Assembly (NCBI RefSeq): GCF_006345805.1
Contig: NW_021834724.1
Location: 1 to 26,741, forward strand
Direction: 5' to 3'
DNA length: 26,741 nt
DNA from: Octopus sinensis
Lineage: Eukaryota
This document shows, in pieces, positions 9,005 to 26,178 of the stretch (positions within the stretch are counted from its first letter, which is position 1; each line of letters starts with the position of its first letter). The notes beneath the pieces are model-generated. The model was not told where the DNA came from. It worked only from the letters and a program-made list of their open reading frames with translations, and did not search any database. Position numbers and translations under genes: made by a program.

Positions 9005-9309
9005 AGTTTGCAAGATTCTTTATATGAGTTTGTGTTTTGAAGCATATTCTGTTATGTCTGGGGAGAGTGATTTTCTTTTTGTGCCTTATAATGTAAAACA
9101 CTCACCGGTAAAATTTCCACTTATTTCTTATTTCTATTTTCCTAAAATTTTCGTTGCGTCTTGCAACCTTTTCAATAGTTTTGACTATTGAAAAAGTTGC
9201 AAGATGCAATGAAAATTTTAGGAAAATAAGAAATAAGTGGAAATTTTACTGGTGAGTGTGTTACATTATAAGGCACAAAAAGAAAATGACTCTCCCTAGA
9301 CACAACAGC
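9005..9309. mobile_element. Foldback non-autonomous insertion, Penelope-like, with ~130-bp inverted arms (9049-9179 / 9184-9308)
   Basis: Near-perfect palindrome with a 4-nt loop (tttg); flanked by the direct repeat A10GGATTT (about 8989-9004 and 9310-9325). Confidence 0.75.
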
Positions 9310-10311
9310 AAAAAAAAAAGGATTTTACATTAAATATTTCCAGCAGAATAAATGTAAAGTTTGGTAGTTGTTTATGATTGTAGTAATCAGTTTTATGGTC
9401 AGATATGGCATCACTTTACTTTTGAATGTTGTATTTTGCTGAAGTATAATATTAATTCTACAGAGAGTGATTAGCTTCCATGATCCAAAGTACTGACTAA
9501 ATTACATGTAGTACCTCTAACTTTTATACAATAATTGCTGCTTCATAGAGTACCTTTTTACCTTTAGGAATCTTGTCATTGTTCAGAGAAATTCAGTTCA
9601 TAGGATTAGATTTTCTAATAAGAAATCCTCCTGTTTTTTTTTTTTATTGAAAATCAATTAATCCTGCACTTTCACCCAGGTGACACATCAAGCTTGTCTT
9701 TTCCAACAAGAATCTACTAAGTGTTAAATCTTTTAGATTGCAACTTTTTAGTAAAAGGTTGAGAAAGCAAAACATTCTTATTGTTTCGCTTGTGCCTACA
9801 GGCTTTCAGTTACTGAAATATTTTCATTAATCAAGTCTTTGAGAAAAGTTTTTAGTTCAAGCAAATTCTTGCTCACCAAACAGAGGCTCCCCCAGTGTGT
9901 TGCTTGATCCAAAAATAACTCCTTTACCAGCATGTAAAGAGAATAGAATCTATTTTAGGACTACTTGCCTCCACTAGCCCATGTGAGTAGCTATGTGACA
10001 ATCTCTCAATCTTTCCCTTATTGCTAGTTACAATGTACACACAGCAAATGCAAAACTCGAATTAGGAATCTCTTTGATGTTTTCTCAACATTATCATCTA
10101 CAATTTCACTGCTCTCTCTCTCTCTCTTTCTTTCCTGTTTGGAGATCATTTGTAGGAATATCATGTTCACCTTCCAACATTTGTGCACTTTCTTTATTAA
10201 TTTTATTCACATCTCAATTGTGGTTAATGTGCTTAAAGCATTATCACTTACAAATCATACAACTTGCTCTTTTTTTTCATTTCAGAACCTTCCAAAACTT
10301 CTTCAACTTTA

Positions 10312-10563
10312 CTTCTATTGGTTTCTTTTGCTGAACCACTAAGTTACGGGGATGTAAACACACCAACACCAACACAAACACACACATACACAGATATATA
10401 TATGAGAGGTTTCTTTCAGTTTCTGTCTACCAAATCTACTCGCAAAGTTTTGGTTGGCCCAAGGCTATAGTAGAAGACACTTGCCCAAAGTGCCACACAG
10501 TGAGACTGAACTCAGAACTATGTGGTTAGAAAGCAAACTTCTTGCCACACAGCCACACCTGCC
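10312..10563 (-). mobile_element. SINE family A, 3'-truncated
   Basis: Collinear with the 14290-14689 copy. Confidence 0.9.
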
Positions 10564-10605
10564 AACATTTGTTAATGTGAATGTTAAGGTAATTGTAAAT
10601 TTGTA

Positions 10606-10826
10606 TACTCTTTACTCTCTCTTTTATTTGTTTCAGTCATGTGACTGTGGCCATGCTGGAGCACCGCCTATAGTCAGGCAAATCGACCCCCACGACTTAT
10701 TCTTTGTAAGCCTAGTACTTATTCTATCGGTCTCTTTTGCTGAACTGCTAAGTTATGGGGACGCAAACACACCAGCATCGATAGTCAAGCGATGTTGGAG
10801 GGACAAACATGGACACACAAACATAT

Positions 10827-10873
<47 letters not shown>

Positions 10874-11039
10874 TATACGATGGGCTTCTTTCAGTTTACG
10901 TCTACCAAATCCACTCACAAGGCTTTGGTCGACCCAAGGCTATAGTAGAAGACACTTGCCCAAGGTGCCATGCAGTGGGACTGAATCTGGAACCATGTGG
11001 TTGGTAAGTAAGCTATTTACAACACAGCTACTCCTGTCC
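10606..11039 (-). mobile_element. SINE family A, full length
   Basis: tRNA-like head, ccttgggcaagtgtctt core, internal (TA)/(CA) tract and tactcttt-repeat tail. Confidence 0.93.
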
Positions 11040-11436
11040 AGTGACTCGCCACTCAAGAAAGGGTAAAATTTTATTTTTGTGTGTGCATGCATGTGTGTGA
11101 TTTTACAAAGGGTAGAGTCAGTTTTCTTAGTCACACATGATATCATGTGCAGTAGCTGTTTTGACAGAGTGTCACAATTTCGGTTGCTATAGTAGCAGCA
11201 CTTGTAGCTGTTGCCATGATACTGTTGGCCATTGAGGAACCATTGTATTTCCTCTGCACTTTGAATCGCTTTCTTCCATCATGAATACTATGTTGTCATT
11301 ATTGAAATCATTGCTTTATTTTTTTTAAATCTAGATTTTTCACGAAAAATTTTTCAAAGAAGCTGTGGCTCTATAGGGTCAACGTAAAAAGAAAATAAAA
11401 CTATGCCCTTATATTACTGATCAGTTCTACAAAATA

Positions 11437-13438: not shown

Positions 13439-13632
13439 TTAAGATGAATTAAAAATGCTTTTTTAAATGATGCAAATAAGCAAATATATATATATATCTA
13501 TAGTGAGGGTATGAGAGGTATTGATATCTAGATGACCCAGACAAGAAAGTAAAATTCAAACACAGGAAAAGTGTAAGAACAGCAGAGAGAGGTTGAATAT
13601 TTACCCTTATAAGACAGAAAAAAGTTGCCTAT

Positions 13633-13704
13633 AGACCACTATGGGAGTTGAACCTGTTCCCCTCAGATACCAGCTGAGTGCTCAGCCATTAAGCTAAACA
13701 GCCC
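13633..13704 (-). pseudogene. tRNA-like sequence with Thr-type GGT anticodon; pseudogene or SINE head
   Basis: A-box tagcttaatgg, anticodon arm ctcag-ctggtat-ctgag, B-box ggttcaactcc, downstream T6-7; mismatched acceptor stem. Confidence 0.6.
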
Positions 13705-13770
13705 CTGACAATAATCACTATCAATTTTGATGCTAAATCATAGCTTTCCAAATGCGACATTTTTCATAAC

Positions 13771-13841
13771 GGACTGCTTAGCTTAGTGGTAGAGCACACA
13801 GCCAGTATCTGAGGGGTACAGGTTCAACTCCCGTAGCCTCC
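13771..13841 (+). pseudogene. tRNA-like sequence with Thr-type AGT anticodon; pseudogene or SINE head
   Basis: D arm gctt-agtggta-gagc, anticodon arm cacag-ccagtat-ctgag, T arm acagg-ttcaact-cccgt, T6 at 13852-13857. Confidence 0.65.
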
Positions 13842-13975
13842 TGCTGGCAACTTTTTTCCATCTTATAAGGGTAAATACCCACTCTTTCTCAGCTACTCTT
13901 ACAGTTATACTATGTTCAAAATTTACTTTCTTGTCTGTAAAATACCAAACACATTTGACACTTCCAAGATTTGTT

Positions 13976-14289: not shown

Positions 14290-14689
14290 TACTCTTTTAC
14301 TTGTTTCAGTCATTTGACTGCAGCCATGCTGGAGCACCGCCTTTAGTCGAGGAAATCGACCCCGGAACTTATTCTTTGTAAGCCCAATACTTATTCTATC
14401 GGTCTCTTTTGCCGAACCGCTAAGTGACGGGGACGTAAACACACCAACATCGGTTGTCAAGCAATGTGAGGGAGACAAACACAGACACACAAACACACAC
14501 ACACATACATATATATACATATATACAACAGGCTTCTTTCAGTTTCCGTCTACCAAATCCACTCACAAGGCATTGGTTGGCCCGAGGCTATAGCAGAAGA
14601 CACTTGCCCAAGGTGCCACGCAGTGGGACTGAACCCAGTACCATGGGGTTGGTTAGCAAGCTACTTACCACACAGCCACTCCTGCGCCT
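14290..14689 (-). mobile_element. SINE family A, full length, CpG-retaining (young)
   Basis: Head aggcgcaggagtggctgtgtggtaag...gggttcagtccc (A/B boxes); tail gactgaaacaagtaaaagagta. Confidence 0.95.
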
Positions 14690-14944
14690 GTATATATATA
14701 TATATATACATTTAAAGAAAAGGAAATGGAGATAATGAAGTTAATTTGTTAATAATAAATAATTGTTGACTTCCTTATCTCTATTTTCTTTCCTTCTTTT
14801 AAATGGACATAAGCTATATGCTTAATATATACCTATTGCTTTTAAGGGAATTTCATCCCCAACAATACTAGGTATTGTACCAGTATTTCCTTGGATGCAA
14901 CCATCCCTTCACAAGGTTAACATATCCTCTAATTAATCAAATTT

Positions 14945-15023: not shown

Positions 15024-15408
15024 GTATAAGATGGCTGGATAGATAGATAGATATAGAATGGCTGGGTTGATAGATATATACATACATCTTTATTTAATGC
15101 TTCTTTTCCATGCTAGCATCATTTACGTTGGTGTAAATACTGAGACAGGCTTTATATGGCAAGATGCACTTCTTGTCTGCAACCTTTACCTCTTTTACAA
15201 GGAAGACTCCTGAAGTGCAGATCTTGAGATGATTTGTTGACAAAGAAATGTCAATAAACTTTACTGGTTGCAGCCCCATCACAATGTCACTGCTTGTAGC
15301 TGGGAACCAAATGCTAATGCCAGCTCGGTAGTTTTGTAAACATTCACAAAAACATACATGCAAACACACGCACATATATATTCTGATAAGTATAGATACT
15401 TTTATATA

Positions 15409-15792
15409 TACTCTTTTACTTGTTTCAGTCATTTGACTGCGGCCATGCTGGAGCATCACCTTTAGTCGAGCAAATTGACCCCAGGACTTATTCTTTGTTA
15501 GCCTAGCACTTATTCTATCGGTCTCTTTTGCCAAACTGCTAAGTTACAGGGACGTAAACACACCAGCATCAGTTGTCGAGCGATGTTGGGGGAACAAACA
15601 CACAAACATAAATATATATACATATATACGACAGGCTTCTTTCAGTTTCCGTCTACCAAATCCACTCACAAGGCTTTGGTTGGCCTGAGGCTTTAGTAGA
15701 GAACACTTGACCAAGGTGCCACGCAGTGGGACTGAACCCAGAACCATGTGGTTGGTAAGCAAGCTACTTACCACACAGCCAATCCTGTGCCT
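15409..15792 (-). mobile_element. SINE family A, full length
   Basis: Collinear with 14290-14689. Confidence 0.95.
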
Positions 15793-16419
15793 ATGTATAA
15801 TTTAGTTATAGGATTCTCAAGAATCAAAGGACACCAAAATGGCTACATATGATCACACAGGGCTCACAATAAAATAAAACAACATTGAATATTGCAAGTG
15901 TTGGCAGGATTCAGGAAATATGCAAGTATCAAACCCAATTTCTAACTGTAGACCCCAACTCCCCAGTTGGTCCTTGGCACGGTGCAGGTATAAAAAGTAA
16001 ACACAAATGGCATATAAAATTTACAACAGCTGTTTTAGTTGCTAAATTTTAAATGCCATTTCTGTTTACTATTGATACACACACACATCTATATACACAC
16101 GCACATATATATATATAGACACATATATAGTCATGCATAAATATAGATATAGACCTATATATACACACACAAATGCATGTGTATATACATATGCATATAA
16201 ACACATAAATGGCGGTGCCCCAGCATGGCCACAGCTCAAGAGCTGAAACTGGAAAACATAAACATAATACACACACAATAGTCTTTGGTCAGCCCAGGCT
16301 ATAGAAGACACTTACCCAAGACATCACAGTGGGACTAATTTTGTGTGTATGTGTGTGTATACATATATACATGCACAAATTTAATTACATAAAATATAAA
16401 AGCAAAAACAAAATACAAG

Positions 16420-20861: not shown

Positions 20862-21141
20862 AAATCATACCTATGTTTATTTTAAGTCAGGTATTTATAC
20901 TGTCAATCCCTTTTGTCAAACTACTAAGTTATGGGGGACATAAACTGACCACTGTGTGTTGTCAAGCAGTAGGGAACAGATACAAATGCAAAACACACAC
21001 ACACACACACATATATATATACAAAGGGTTTCTTTCAGCTTCCATCTACCAAATCCACACACAAGGTGTTAGTCAATCTGGAGCTCTAGTAAGACATTTG
21101 CTCCAGGCGCCACACAGCAGTATCAAACATGAAAGCATATT

Positions 21142-21760
21142 GTTGGGAAGCAAACTTCTTACGACACAGCCTCACCTGCACCTACGCAAGTATTGCTGTG
21201 TGGTTAAGATAGCCAGTTAAATTGATTCAAGTATGTAACTGGTTATTTTTTAAACTCTAAAATGTCTCCAGAGCAGAGGTGGAAGACTCTTTACCCATGG
21301 GTAAAATTTATATTGTCCAAACCATACCAGCATGAAAAATGGACATTAAAAATCATGATGACGATAATTTAATGATTTAAAATTGAAACAGTCCACTGTT
21401 GAAGGTTCTGGAAACACATGAAAATAACAACTTAGGTCTTAATATCATTATCATCATCATTTAATGCTCACTTTCCATGCTGGCATGGGTTAGACAGTTT
21501 GACTGAAACCGGTAAGCCAGGTGGCTGCACCAGGCTCCAGTCTGATTCGGCATAGTCTCTACAGCTGGATGCCCTTAGTAGTAATAATAATAATAATAAT
21601 AATCAACTTATCCTCTCCCTCAAAATTGCTCTGGAAGCATTCTGGAGTTAAAAAAATAACCAGTTACATACTTGAATCAATTCAACTGGTTATCTTAACC
21701 ACACAGCAATACTTGTGTAGGTGCAGGTGTGACTGTGTGGTAAGAAGCTTGCTTCCCAAC
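21142..21760. repeat. Local inverted duplication (21142-21275 / 21627-21760)
   Basis: About 134-bp arms covering a SINE A head and the adjacent sequence caagtattgctgtgtggttaagata...ccagagca. Confidence 0.9.
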
Positions 21761-22743: not shown

Positions 22744-23138
22744 TATTCTTTTATTCTATAACTTGTTTCAGTCATTTGACTGTGGCCATGCTGGAGGACT
22801 ACCTTGAAGGGTTTTAGTTGAACAAGCTTACCCCAGGACTTATATTTTTAAGCCTAGCACTTATTCAACCAGTCTCTTGCACCGGACTGCTAGTTTAAAA
22901 GGACATAAACACACCAACACCAAGTGGTGATGGGGAGACAAACACAGATACAAAGACACACACAAATATATATACAACAGGTTTCTTTCAGTTTCCACCT
23001 AGCAAATCCACCCACAAGGCTTTGGTCAGTCCAAGGCTATAGTAGAAGACACTTGCTCAAGGTGCCATGCAGTGGGACTGAACCTGGGACCATGTGGTTG
23101 GGAAGCAAGCTTTTTACCACACATCCATGTCTATGCCT
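22744..23138 (-). mobile_element. SINE family A, full length
   Basis: Collinear with 14290-14689. Confidence 0.92.
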
Positions 23139-23314
23139 CCACACAGTGCCATATATACATATACACACACACACACACATGCACATCCATGTGCATACAT
23201 AACAAGCTAGATTTACATTCAGGTTGTAAATTGGTTCATAAGTACCCCTTAACCCTTGTTATCATATTACTATGCACACACACCTATTCAAGTATAAATA
23301 ATACAAATACACAC

Positions 23315-24420: not shown

Positions 24421-24430
24421 TATATATATA

Positions 24431-25090
24431 ATTAAATAAGGGTAGAAATTGATATTAATCAATTAAAACCAGTGGCTTAACATATTTTAAAAAATCCAAA
24501 GATTAAAAATTGGTTCAACATACAAAATTTAGAGGACTGACCACTAAAAGTATATAAAACAATTTTTTTAATCTTCGGATTTTTTAAAATATGCTAAGCC
24601 ACTGGTTTTAATTGATTAATATCAATTTCTACCCTTATTTAATTTTAAATTAAAAAATGTTCTCTAACCGGTAAATTGACAGCTGTAGTTTATTAACTGC
24701 AGAGTAGTTTCTGATCTCAGCGCGCCAAAGTAAAGGCATTTGAAAGATACACCTAAATATAATTTGTAGAACTTTATACATGATGGATTTCGGTTAAACA
24801 TTCTGTATCTAGTTCTGGAAATTGTGTTTTGTAAACGACAGACTATGCTGTTGATCTTGCAGATGTTTGCGTGTTCATATACGTAAATATTAACAAGTGA
24901 AATCAATTGGTACGTAGGTAATCGTTTTTTATTTCGTATATTTTCATGTGTCTTGCTTATTTTTACACTTTGGATTTTTGCTGAGATTTTTCTTGAGAAC
25001 ACATTCTTCGTGGTAAATGGCGATTTGACATCTATGTCTAGCATAGAGGCTGTCCACTTTTAGCGGTCAGTCCTCTAAATTTTGTATATA
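24431..25090. mobile_element. Non-autonomous hammerhead-bearing element: ~540-bp monomer plus ~120-bp inverted partial copy
   Basis: 24431-24517 is inverted at 24556-24644; 24520-24551 is inverted at 25056-25088; (TA)n flanks. Confidence 0.75.
24843..24917 (+). ncRNA. Type I hammerhead-ribozyme-like motif with A6U core variant and long stem II
   Basis: CUAUG CUGUUGA [u cuug cag AUGUUUGCGUGU ucau AUACGUAAAUAU uaa caag u] GAAA UCAAUUGG UA^CGUAG. Confidence 0.65.
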
Positions 25091-25340
25091 TATATATATA
25101 TTTATAAATAAGGATAATATCAATATTTAAATATCGATATTATCAAGTGGCCAGCATGGGAATAAATACCATACAAAGGTAATAATTTTTTTACAACTAT
25201 AAATAAGGATATCTGAGAGACACCACCATGCCGAAATAGCAGTCAAAACCCTGACTCCAAAAACCACCTAAAATGTTCATATTGCACCATGAGATAAGAT
25301 AGAGGGACAAAATAAACTAGCAAAAAGATTTTACTGGATA

Positions 25341-25399
25341 ATTCAAGATCCTGGATTTCTAACTTTGCTTCAAATAAGCTCTGCCTTCATCAGTTTAAT
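25341..25399 (-). ncRNA. Type I hammerhead ribozyme motif, left arm
   Basis: AUUAAA CUGAUGA [aggc aga GCUU auuug AAGC aaa guua] GAAA UCCAGGA UC^UUGAAU; one stem I mismatch. Confidence 0.7.
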
Positions 25400-25738
25400 A
25401 TACCAGATGGGCACATAAATACAAATATATATATATACAGAACATACGTTATACTTACATATACGAACGTCCATACATACATATATATTCACGTATGTAC
25501 ACGGCCAGTCCAAATTGCCTGCCAACCACCCCATAGGTGCGATATGGTCAAAATAAACACCGCAGCGAATATAGAGACAAATTATATAAATTTATAAATA
25601 AGGATAATATCGATATTTAGGGCAATTTGGACTGGCCGTGTACATACGTGCATATTTATGTATGTATGGACGTTCGTATATGTAAGTATAACATATGTTC
25701 TGTATAGATATATTTGTATTTATGTGCCCATCTGGTAT

Positions 25739-25797
25739 ATTCAACTGACGAAAGCAGAGTTTATTTGAAGCAAAGCTAGAAATCCAGGATCTTGAAT
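25739..25797 (+). ncRNA. Type I hammerhead ribozyme motif, right arm
   Basis: AUUCAA CUGACGA [a agc aga guuu auuug aagc aaa gcu a] GAAA UCC A GGA UC^UUGAAU; perfect 6-bp stem I, canonical core, predicted cut after 25791. Confidence 0.75.
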
Positions 25798-26029
25798 TAT
25801 CCAGTAAAATCTTTTTGCTAGTTTATTTTGTCCCTCTATCTTATCTCATGGTGCGATATGAACATTTTAGGTGGTTTTTAGAGTCAGGGTTTTGACTGTT
25901 ATTTCGGCATGGTGGTGTCTCTCAGATACCCTTATTTATAGTTATATATATATATATATATATATATAATCAATTCTTTCCTGCTTGCATAGATCAGGCA
26001 AAAATTGTTGAGGTGAATTTTCCACAGCC

Positions 26030-26178
26030 AGATGCCCTCTCAGTTTCCATCTAATGAATCTACTCACAAGGCCTTGGCTGACCTGTGGATGACTATAGTA
26101 GAAGGCACTTGCCCAAGATGTCACGCAGTGAGACTGAACTTGAAACTACATGGTTAGGAAGCAAGTTTTTTCACTATG
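26030..26178 (-). mobile_element. SINE family A, 5' half
   Basis: ctcacaaggccttgg...ctatagtagaaggcacttgcccaag...gactgaac...tggttaggaagcaag. Confidence 0.85.

Follow-up and report, generated by a model that had tools for sequence, protein, structure and literature searches.

Layout of the locus

The stretch of Octopus sinensis DNA analysed here (26,741 nucleotides of contig NW_021834724.1, hereafter the window) carries two adjoining insertions of ORF-less repeat units near its right-hand end, which we refer to as family 1 and family 2. The family 1 insertion consists of a full unit, a partial second unit, and an inverted arm. The full unit of 490 nt (25093..25582), delimited by the repeat period and by the family copies, has its hammerhead-bearing RNA-sense strand on the minus strand. 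Its first part, 25093-25129, is found again at 25583-25619 (37 nt, 94.6% identity), where a 5'-truncated second unit is joined head-to-tail to the first on the same strand, in a pseudo-LTR-like arrangement. The inverted arm on the plus strand (25621..25946, 326 nt) is likewise 5'-truncated and matches 25192-25519 with 95.1% identity over 328 columns. An earlier note, made from the letters of this DNA, had described a 490-bp unit whose start recurs at its end, followed by an inverted copy of about 325 bp, and both features are borne out.

The two arms differ at their 3' ends. A tail of ~95 nt, defined by end distances and end clustering, lies between two preferred 3' ends and spans 25100..25194 on the minus strand; the inverted arm ends at the proximal site, site B, and lacks this tail. 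Site B lies 152 nt and the distal site A 247 nt past the predicted cut, both preceded by a CCTTATTTATA motif. Each end of the insertion is embedded in a (TA)n tract, one at site A (25085..25102), which also forms the end of the family 2 insertion, and one of thirteen TA repeats, (TA)13, at the end of the inverted arm (25943..25968).

Each arm contains one type I hammerhead. The hammerhead of the inverted arm (25732..25804, plus strand, core-proximal part 25739-25797) is backed by covariation, and its stem I extends past a 3x3 internal loop. Its predicted cut falls after C25791, the C17 of the plus arm and the very position that had been proposed beforehand. The hammerhead of the main unit (25341..25399, minus strand, predicted cut after 25347) has a single mismatch in stem I, and two of its stem IIa pairs are G-U. 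The locus holds only one family 1 hammerhead per strand, and the predicted fold of a read-through RNA is a long hairpin in which the entire hammerhead is paired. Because its two ribozymes face opposite ways and the predicted hairpin would bury the ribozyme, the window copy is probably inert: it would be unable to cleave as a dimer or to circularise, and is probably dead as a source of circles. A search of four window frames against Pfam gives no match, in agreement with the earlier reading that no credible ORF is present.

The remainder of the window contains further repeats. Inverted repeats that have no hammerhead match occur at 9049-9308, 13538-13937, and 21142-21760, with arms of 85, 167, and 134 nt, respectively. 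The last of these is built of the common SINE-like repeat of the window, a dispersed element with copies 75-90% alike, often beside microsatellites, that is found at ~10300-11050, 14290-14700, 15400-15800, 21000-21160, 22760-23150, and 26030-26170.

Fold and conservation of the family 1 hammerhead

The family 1 hammerhead is composed, in order, of a distal stem I, a 3x3 loop, a 6-bp stem I, a 3-bp stem IIa, a second 3x3 loop, a 4-bp stem IIb, and stem III. With a strict hammerhead descriptor, a single site is detected in the window, and each of 20 dinucleotide shuffles contains none. The proposed Rfam check returns a full-length match of Hammerhead_1 (RF00163) to exactly 25739-25797, at 24.2 bits and E=3e-4 in a 106-nt search; the score lies under the gathering score of 34, stem II is left unaligned, and a 2.7-kb scan yields no Rfam hammerhead match. 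As regards the closing of the core by stem I AUUCAA/UUGAAU in each arm, the core stands in both, and the left arm reads AUUAAA/UUGAAU with one mismatch.

Family copies support this fold. Across 73 distinct copies, 92.0% of 1,455 cells are paired, compared with 14-50% in slid controls. Two-sided changes occupy 51 cells, against 18.9±3.2 after shuffling (0/500), and the pairs that show two-sided change number only five, against 4.4 when shuffled. Since kinship among the copies inflates such counts, they reflect a handful of events. The compensatory states are A-U, C-G, and U-A in stem I, G-C and A-U in distal stem I, and U-A and A-U in stem IIb, whereas N7 and the base at the centre of stem III are free to vary. 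The core is intact in 65 of 84 copies, 63 of which also keep at least five of the six stem I pairs, in a set that was partly selected on the core. In 37 copies from an unbiased DNA search, CUGANGA is kept in 26, and nine of the other 11 carry U4C. Loss of the core and of stem I among the copies had been named in advance as the outcome that would speak against a ribozyme; both are conserved, and the suggested examination of stem covariation likewise came out in favour of the fold. Judged on these alignments, the window copy and its family have a type I hammerhead fold supported by compensatory changes.

The earlier note had also described an atypical A·A mismatch at 10.1/11.1, and here the copies give a different picture. 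The position 5' of stem II is occupied by A or C or is missing, G10.1 pairs with C or U, and an extra A before G12, directly in front of GAAA, is found in 82 of 84 copies. Since the 5' base varies while the A before GAAA does not, A·A is not a family-wide pair. It is better read as the extra nucleotide known from Penelope-like elements (PLEs), whose hammerhead consensus has an additional nucleotide after A9 followed by G10.1-C11.1 (PMC4209133), together with an invariant extra A before G12. The latter is a real oddity of the family 1 core.

Stem III is a near-palindrome, as had been seen, and pairs with itself as a duplex; the 1-nt loop assigned to it earlier cannot close. A monomer would consequently form at most three stem III pairs around CAG, whereas a dimer could form four plus four. 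The 9-mer of stem III is predicted to form a self-duplex of -7.6 kcal/mol and no hairpin on its own, and its inner C-G is kept in 71 of 73 copies, though impossible in a monomer. Dimer action has been described for PLE and amphibian hammerheads (PMC4209133, PMC7229834), and the conserved inner C-G and the self-duplexing 9-mer point to the same mode of action for family 1. The whole unit folds better than its shuffles (z=-4.2). Ribozyme activity may be low, as the hammerhead fold is not the predicted minimum (-6.9 versus -11.2 kcal/mol) and the extra A before G12 is off the published consensus.

Copies of the family 1 unit in the genome

Family 1 has 2,538 candidate places in its own 2.7-Gb genome, and the best 40, which were scored, have 86-94% identity. 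Searches with two exact core patterns return 314 and 350 matches, partly overlapping, and the reversed controls return zero. Twenty loci picked for their variant ribozymes lie without exception in homologous units, 72-88% identical and with the same ends, and none of the 20 has an ORF attached to the unit. More broadly, no RT/GIY-YIG ORF was found in or joined to a family 1 unit in the window frames and the loci examined, and 53 loci show no common flank beyond the unit. Contigs from sequencing runs labelled organisms A, B, and D match the unit, and those of three runs, presumably of RNA, and of one unlabelled run cover it piecewise, a result that speaks to its presence only.

Each non-coding unit carries one type I hammerhead. 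A head-to-tail junction is present in 41 of 109 loci, which exceed one unit. Few of the loci seen hold a complete dimer; one that does, L210, comprises 2.15 units with two hammerheads, both of them CCGA variants. A probable local duplication occurs at L191 (G000:C4:120714000-120723900), where two inverted insertions carry identical family 1 hammerheads that point the same way and are separated by 1,457 nt.

Two fixed 3' ends, one on each arm

Insertion ends were read on the ribozyme strand at 109 loci. Of the 149 outer 3' ends in the first run, site A accounts for 66 and site B for 57, and 26 lie elsewhere. Site A coincided with the query edge in this run, and the count was therefore repeated with a natural dimer as query. 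The dimer-query run places 62 of 138 ends at A, 39 at B, and 37 elsewhere, so that 101 lie at A or B where 12% are expected. Pile-ups at positions 47 and 226 in the dimer-query run were set aside as query edges. A (TA)4 lies within 16 nt of 34 of the 62 A ends and 28 of the 39 B ends, compared with 5.5% of random positions.

The two sites are distributed over the two arms in a near-strict manner. Among 42 two-armed insertions of the first run, 25 combine A with B, one has B on both arms, none has A on both, and 16 have an unassigned end; A+B is thus found in 25 of 26 classifiable inverted insertions. The 32 two-armed insertions of the dimer-query run, which served as a control, comprise 15 A+B, no A+A, and no B+B, and A+B thus makes up 15 of 15 classifiable cases there. 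The segment of ~95 nt that separates the sites constitutes a tail, present on one arm only. The arms vary in length, are 5'-truncated, and end at two different internal sites without a common terminus. Their 5' ends are scattered, with one of 142 within 6 nt of the cut where 3.8 are expected by chance, in a sample biased towards hammerhead-bearing loci; as the 5' ends do not gather there, the template appears to have been continuous across the cut. The flanks viewed contain no poly(A) tail and no clear target duplication, although a duplication within (TA)n could hide.

Sister segments within an insertion are discordant at ~10% of subfamily-diagnostic columns, compared with 26-37% between loci, and both arms therefore derive from one or near-identical templates. 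In the window, 4 of 43 diagnostic columns are discordant between the sister arms, against a median of 0.29 to other loci. Tandem and inverted sisters do not differ in this respect (10.1%, 59/584, versus 10.5%, 111/1058; p=0.87). A seemingly lower likeness of tandem sisters (closest relative in 1 of 24, against 19 of 33 for inverted ones) disappeared once columns were controlled and represents an alignment-end effect.

PLE insertions are described as tandem plus inverted copies (PMC8557442). In vitro, an anole PLE cleaves AT-rich DNA on both strands and begins reverse transcription at two internal sites, the spacing of which produces the tail (PMC11167929). The two-site, one-per-arm ends of family 1 match this tail signature of PLEs.

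A second family and further hammerhead groups

The family 2 insertion (24424-25088) abuts family 1 through the common (TA)n tract. Its architecture is that of family 1: family copies and ends define an ORF-less unit of ~530 nt on the plus strand (24556..25088), which forms the arm that stops at the proximal 3' end, and an inverted arm on the minus strand (24424..24551), which wraps the unit junction and ends at the distal 3' end. In the type I hammerhead of family 2 (24843..24917, plus strand), stem II has a U·U at its base and stem III is palindromic; the window copy of this hammerhead has lost core A6 and carries U at 24851. A 131-codon frame at 24664-25059 that looked faintly RT-like by eye has no Pfam match.

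Family 2 has 3,401 candidates, with 89-93% identity among the best 40, and has only a 12-nt end motif in common with family 1. Its stem III varies in a compensatory manner, as U-A in 16 and C-G in 6 of 22 rows, with 96.8% of cells paired in the 22 of 34 copies used, which are free of alignment gaps and truncation. The 3' ends fall at two sites ~95 nt apart in 38 of 41 cases, and 13 two-armed insertions include nine A+B, one B+B, and no A+A. The adjacency of the two families in the window is not typical: of 95 other family 1 loci, only 2 have family 2 sequence nearby.

A search with the stem III pattern of family 2 gives 186 matches, compared with none in the control; the matches come from a variety of further hammerhead types, whose stem II has G-C, U·U, or C·A at its base. 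Forty such loci (L241-L280) form, together with the two window families, nine sequence groups; no PLE ORF is joined to any of these groups in the 40 loci. Common to the hammerheads of L241-L280 are a stem I of 5-6 bp, a four-level stem II, a 3x3 loop, and a palindromic stem III. Rfam finds only a weak HH9 match in one sister family. Core variants of this kind would be missed by standard annotation, since they fall under the Rfam cut-off.

Penelope-like elements of the same genome

An autonomous element that shares sequence with family 1 was not found among the best 30-150 matches per search. Neither a GIY-YIG family search, 20 widened loci, and a second PLE family, nor 20 loci at variant family 1 hammerheads and 46 more, some of them overlapping, include a PLE ORF continuous with the unit. 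A few copies have PLE ORF fragments in their vicinity, which are 66-70% alike and vary in orientation. The fragment at L206, 46 nt from the unit, and others at L125, L173, L201, and L208 were judged chance neighbours.

One PLE family (L093, L281-L340) encodes RT with a C-terminal GIY-YIG and has 1,493 candidates, 99-100% identical among the best 40. We label it Neptune-type by the CxxC before the C-terminal GIY-YIG, following PMC8557442. It has a period of ~4.27 kb, a second reading frame upstream, and tandem as well as inverted copies. Its hammerhead-like motif combines a CCGA core and a palindromic stem III with a stem II that has U·U at its base; the Neptune-type locus has no Rfam hammerhead match. 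Copies end in (TA)n ~143 or 188 nt past the predicted cut, which gives a tail of ~45 nt; of 30 ends, 4 lie at 143 and 21 at 179-203, and 5 continue into a tandem copy, though a few junctions of the 179-203 class consist of microsatellite alone and might represent short ends. No nucleotide similarity to either window family was found. The Neptune-type PLE is the best candidate for the functional driver of the retrozyme units, a link drawn by analogy because nucleotide similarity to these units is lacking.

Other PLEs of this genome also bear hammerhead-like sequences. Another family (L131-L160, L195-L198), with 7,607 candidates at 95-97% amino-acid identity, has a hammerhead-like motif with CUGAUGC as its core, and its 3' ends fall at two sites in (TA)n that are ~55 nt apart. 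The PLE families represented by L091, L092, L044, L045, L096, and L107 have minimal hammerhead candidates of the U3-A8 type (UUGANAA) downstream of the ORF.

Comparison with known systems

Family 1 resembles the metazoan non-LTR retrozymes as described in PMC7229834 and bioRxiv 10.64898/2026.07.22.740005 in having no ORF, a type I hammerhead, units joined head to tail, a GC content below 50%, and PLEs in the same genome. Its length is within the range of 51-972 bp given in the 2026 survey (bioRxiv 10.64898/2026.07.22.740005), although at 490 nt it exceeds the mussel retrozyme units of 350-390 bp. A mismatch at the base of helix II has a precedent in the axolotl HHR_Amex2 (U·U). In contrast to these retrozymes, family 1 occurs mostly as dispersed insertions of one to two units with inverted arms and not as long arrays, and its two fixed 3' ends and (TA)n target are not part of the descriptions drawn on from those retrozyme papers.

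With the pLTR hammerheads of PLEs (PMC4209133, PMC8557442, PMC11167929), family 1 shares the partial tandem, the inverted 5'-truncated arm, the tail on one arm, an AT-rich or microsatellite target, the palindromic helix III, and the extra nucleotide after A9. It differs from the PLEs of these descriptions in the absence of an RT/GIY-YIG ORF and in its tail of ~95 nt, as against 30-40. PLE hammerheads are minimal, whereas that of family 1 has a full 6-bp stem I, an internal loop, a distal stem, and the extra A before G12. The Neptune-type PLE of the same genome shares with family 1 the mismatch at the stem II base, the CCGA variant, the palindromic stem III, two 3' ends, and (TA)n; it differs in encoding RT and GIY-YIG, in the identity of its copies, in its shorter tail, and in lacking nucleotide similarity. 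We found no octopus hammerhead or non-autonomous Penelope report matching these families in the literature as accessed, and repeat libraries or supplements may name them; cephalopods do not figure in the main text of PMC7229834.

Proposed origin and mobilisation of family 1

Taken as a whole, the ORF-less 490-nt family with its conserved type I hammerhead is most probably a non-LTR retrozyme, inserted in trans by the RT/GIY-YIG protein of a Penelope-like element, which would probably be of the Neptune type. We postulate that tandem copies are transcribed and that two hammerheads, paired through their palindromic stem III, cut out a unit-length RNA, which a host ligase would, with about even chances, circularise. 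The PLE protein would nick (TA)n on both strands and start cDNA synthesis 152 and 247 nt past the cut, at one site per nick. The product seen in the genome consists of 5'-truncated arms placed back to back, one per site, which often run beyond the ribozyme and beyond unit length; the window insertion is such a two-arm product. Against the Neptune-type assignment stands the tail, ~45 nt in that PLE and ~95 nt in family 1; published PLE tails measure 30-40 bp. The absence of a sequence-sharing autonomous element from the searches, the non-minimal hammerhead fold with its extra A, the core changes in 11 of 37 copies of the unbiased search, the inflated covariation counts, and the rarity of complete dimers also weigh against the proposed cycle. 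In Xenopus, in vitro cleavage failed for eight of nine retrozyme dimers (bioRxiv 10.64898/2026.07.22.740005), and insertion by the anole PLE could dispense with hammerhead cleavage (PMC11167929).

The earlier interpretation as a Penelope-like or retrozyme element in a partial-tandem plus inverted arrangement is supported by the multi-copy nature of the family, its conserved core and stems, its partial-tandem and inverted insertions, and the two fixed 3' ends. It had named the kind of element correctly; the two-end tail, the (TA)n target, and the adjoining second hammerhead family were not part of it.

A contending explanation, which we rate somewhat below an even chance, retains PLE-driven insertion and replaces the template by an uncut linear multimer transcribed from a few tandem master loci. 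The hammerhead would then act late, require protein, or serve in trimming, and no circle would form. Only the step of excision and circle formation is contested by this explanation, not the identity of the element. The single 5' end near the cut in 142, from the biased sample, agrees with a multimer in that the template continues across the cut, yet a circle would be continuous there as well. Unprocessed RNA is the main substrate of the anole PLE (PMC11167929); the atypical core and a hammerhead fold that is not of minimum energy agree with a late or assisted ribozyme. Conversely, full dimers are rare even though more than one unit is present at 41 of 109 loci, discordance is equally low for tandem and inverted sisters (10.1% versus 10.5%), and circles have been demonstrated for the mussel, coral, and axolotl retrozymes (PMC7229834). 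The genomic data fit a circle and an uncut multimer alike and cannot separate the two.

It is improbable that the unit is a solo pseudo-LTR or the 3' end of an autonomous PLE, with no retrozyme life of its own. Every insertion feature is indeed a PLE feature, Xenopus retrozymes are related to pLTRs (bioRxiv 10.64898/2026.07.22.740005), and about 110 loci of possibly thousands were examined. Nevertheless, in 41 of 109 loci the units meet head to tail at a single fixed junction without an intervening ORF, such ORF-less junctions recur in subfamilies 72-88% identical to the window copy, 53 loci have no shared flank past the unit, and the nearby PLE ORF fragments are 66-70% alike, in varied orientations. 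Less probable still, and very unlikely in our judgement, is the explanation of a LINE-mobilised SINE-like element, or of a DNA-level foldback, MITE, or satellite, in which the hammerhead match is incidental. The long inverted arms and the LINE fragments in examined loci would suit it, but the arms are variable and 5'-truncated and have two internal end sites without a common terminus, the flanks viewed have no poly(A) tail or clear target duplication, and the hammerhead shows compensatory changes. The A+B asymmetry of the ends largely refutes it.

As far as genomic sequence can tell, family 1 behaves as a non-autonomous element mobilised by PLEs and has the genome-testable properties of non-LTR retrozymes. 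Much more tentatively, and with doubt prevailing, we consider a wider radiation: at least nine ORF-less hammerhead groups whose RNA circles are copied by a dimer of the Neptune-type PLE, at two starts ~95 nt apart and one per nick. Recognition would depend on RNA structure and not on descent from the pLTR of the driver, and the non-standard core (the extra A before G12, or N·N at the base of stem II) would work only as a dimer or bound to protein.

Implications for animal retrozymes

Retrozymes of animals, including that of a mollusc, the mussel, have been described before (PMC7229834; review PMC6765202), and in vertebrates their tie to PLEs consists of co-occurrence and pLTR phylogeny, as presented in bioRxiv 10.64898/2026.07.22.740005. 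New here is the two-start-site tail of PLEs on ORF-less hammerhead elements, with a near-strict allocation of one site per arm, found independently in two unrelated families. A young, intact PLE with the same ribozyme variant and target makes the mobilising enzyme of animal retrozymes testable in an existing in vitro assay. If the tentative radiation copied by a Neptune-type dimer were true, it would constitute direct evidence of which enzyme moves animal retrozymes, and how.
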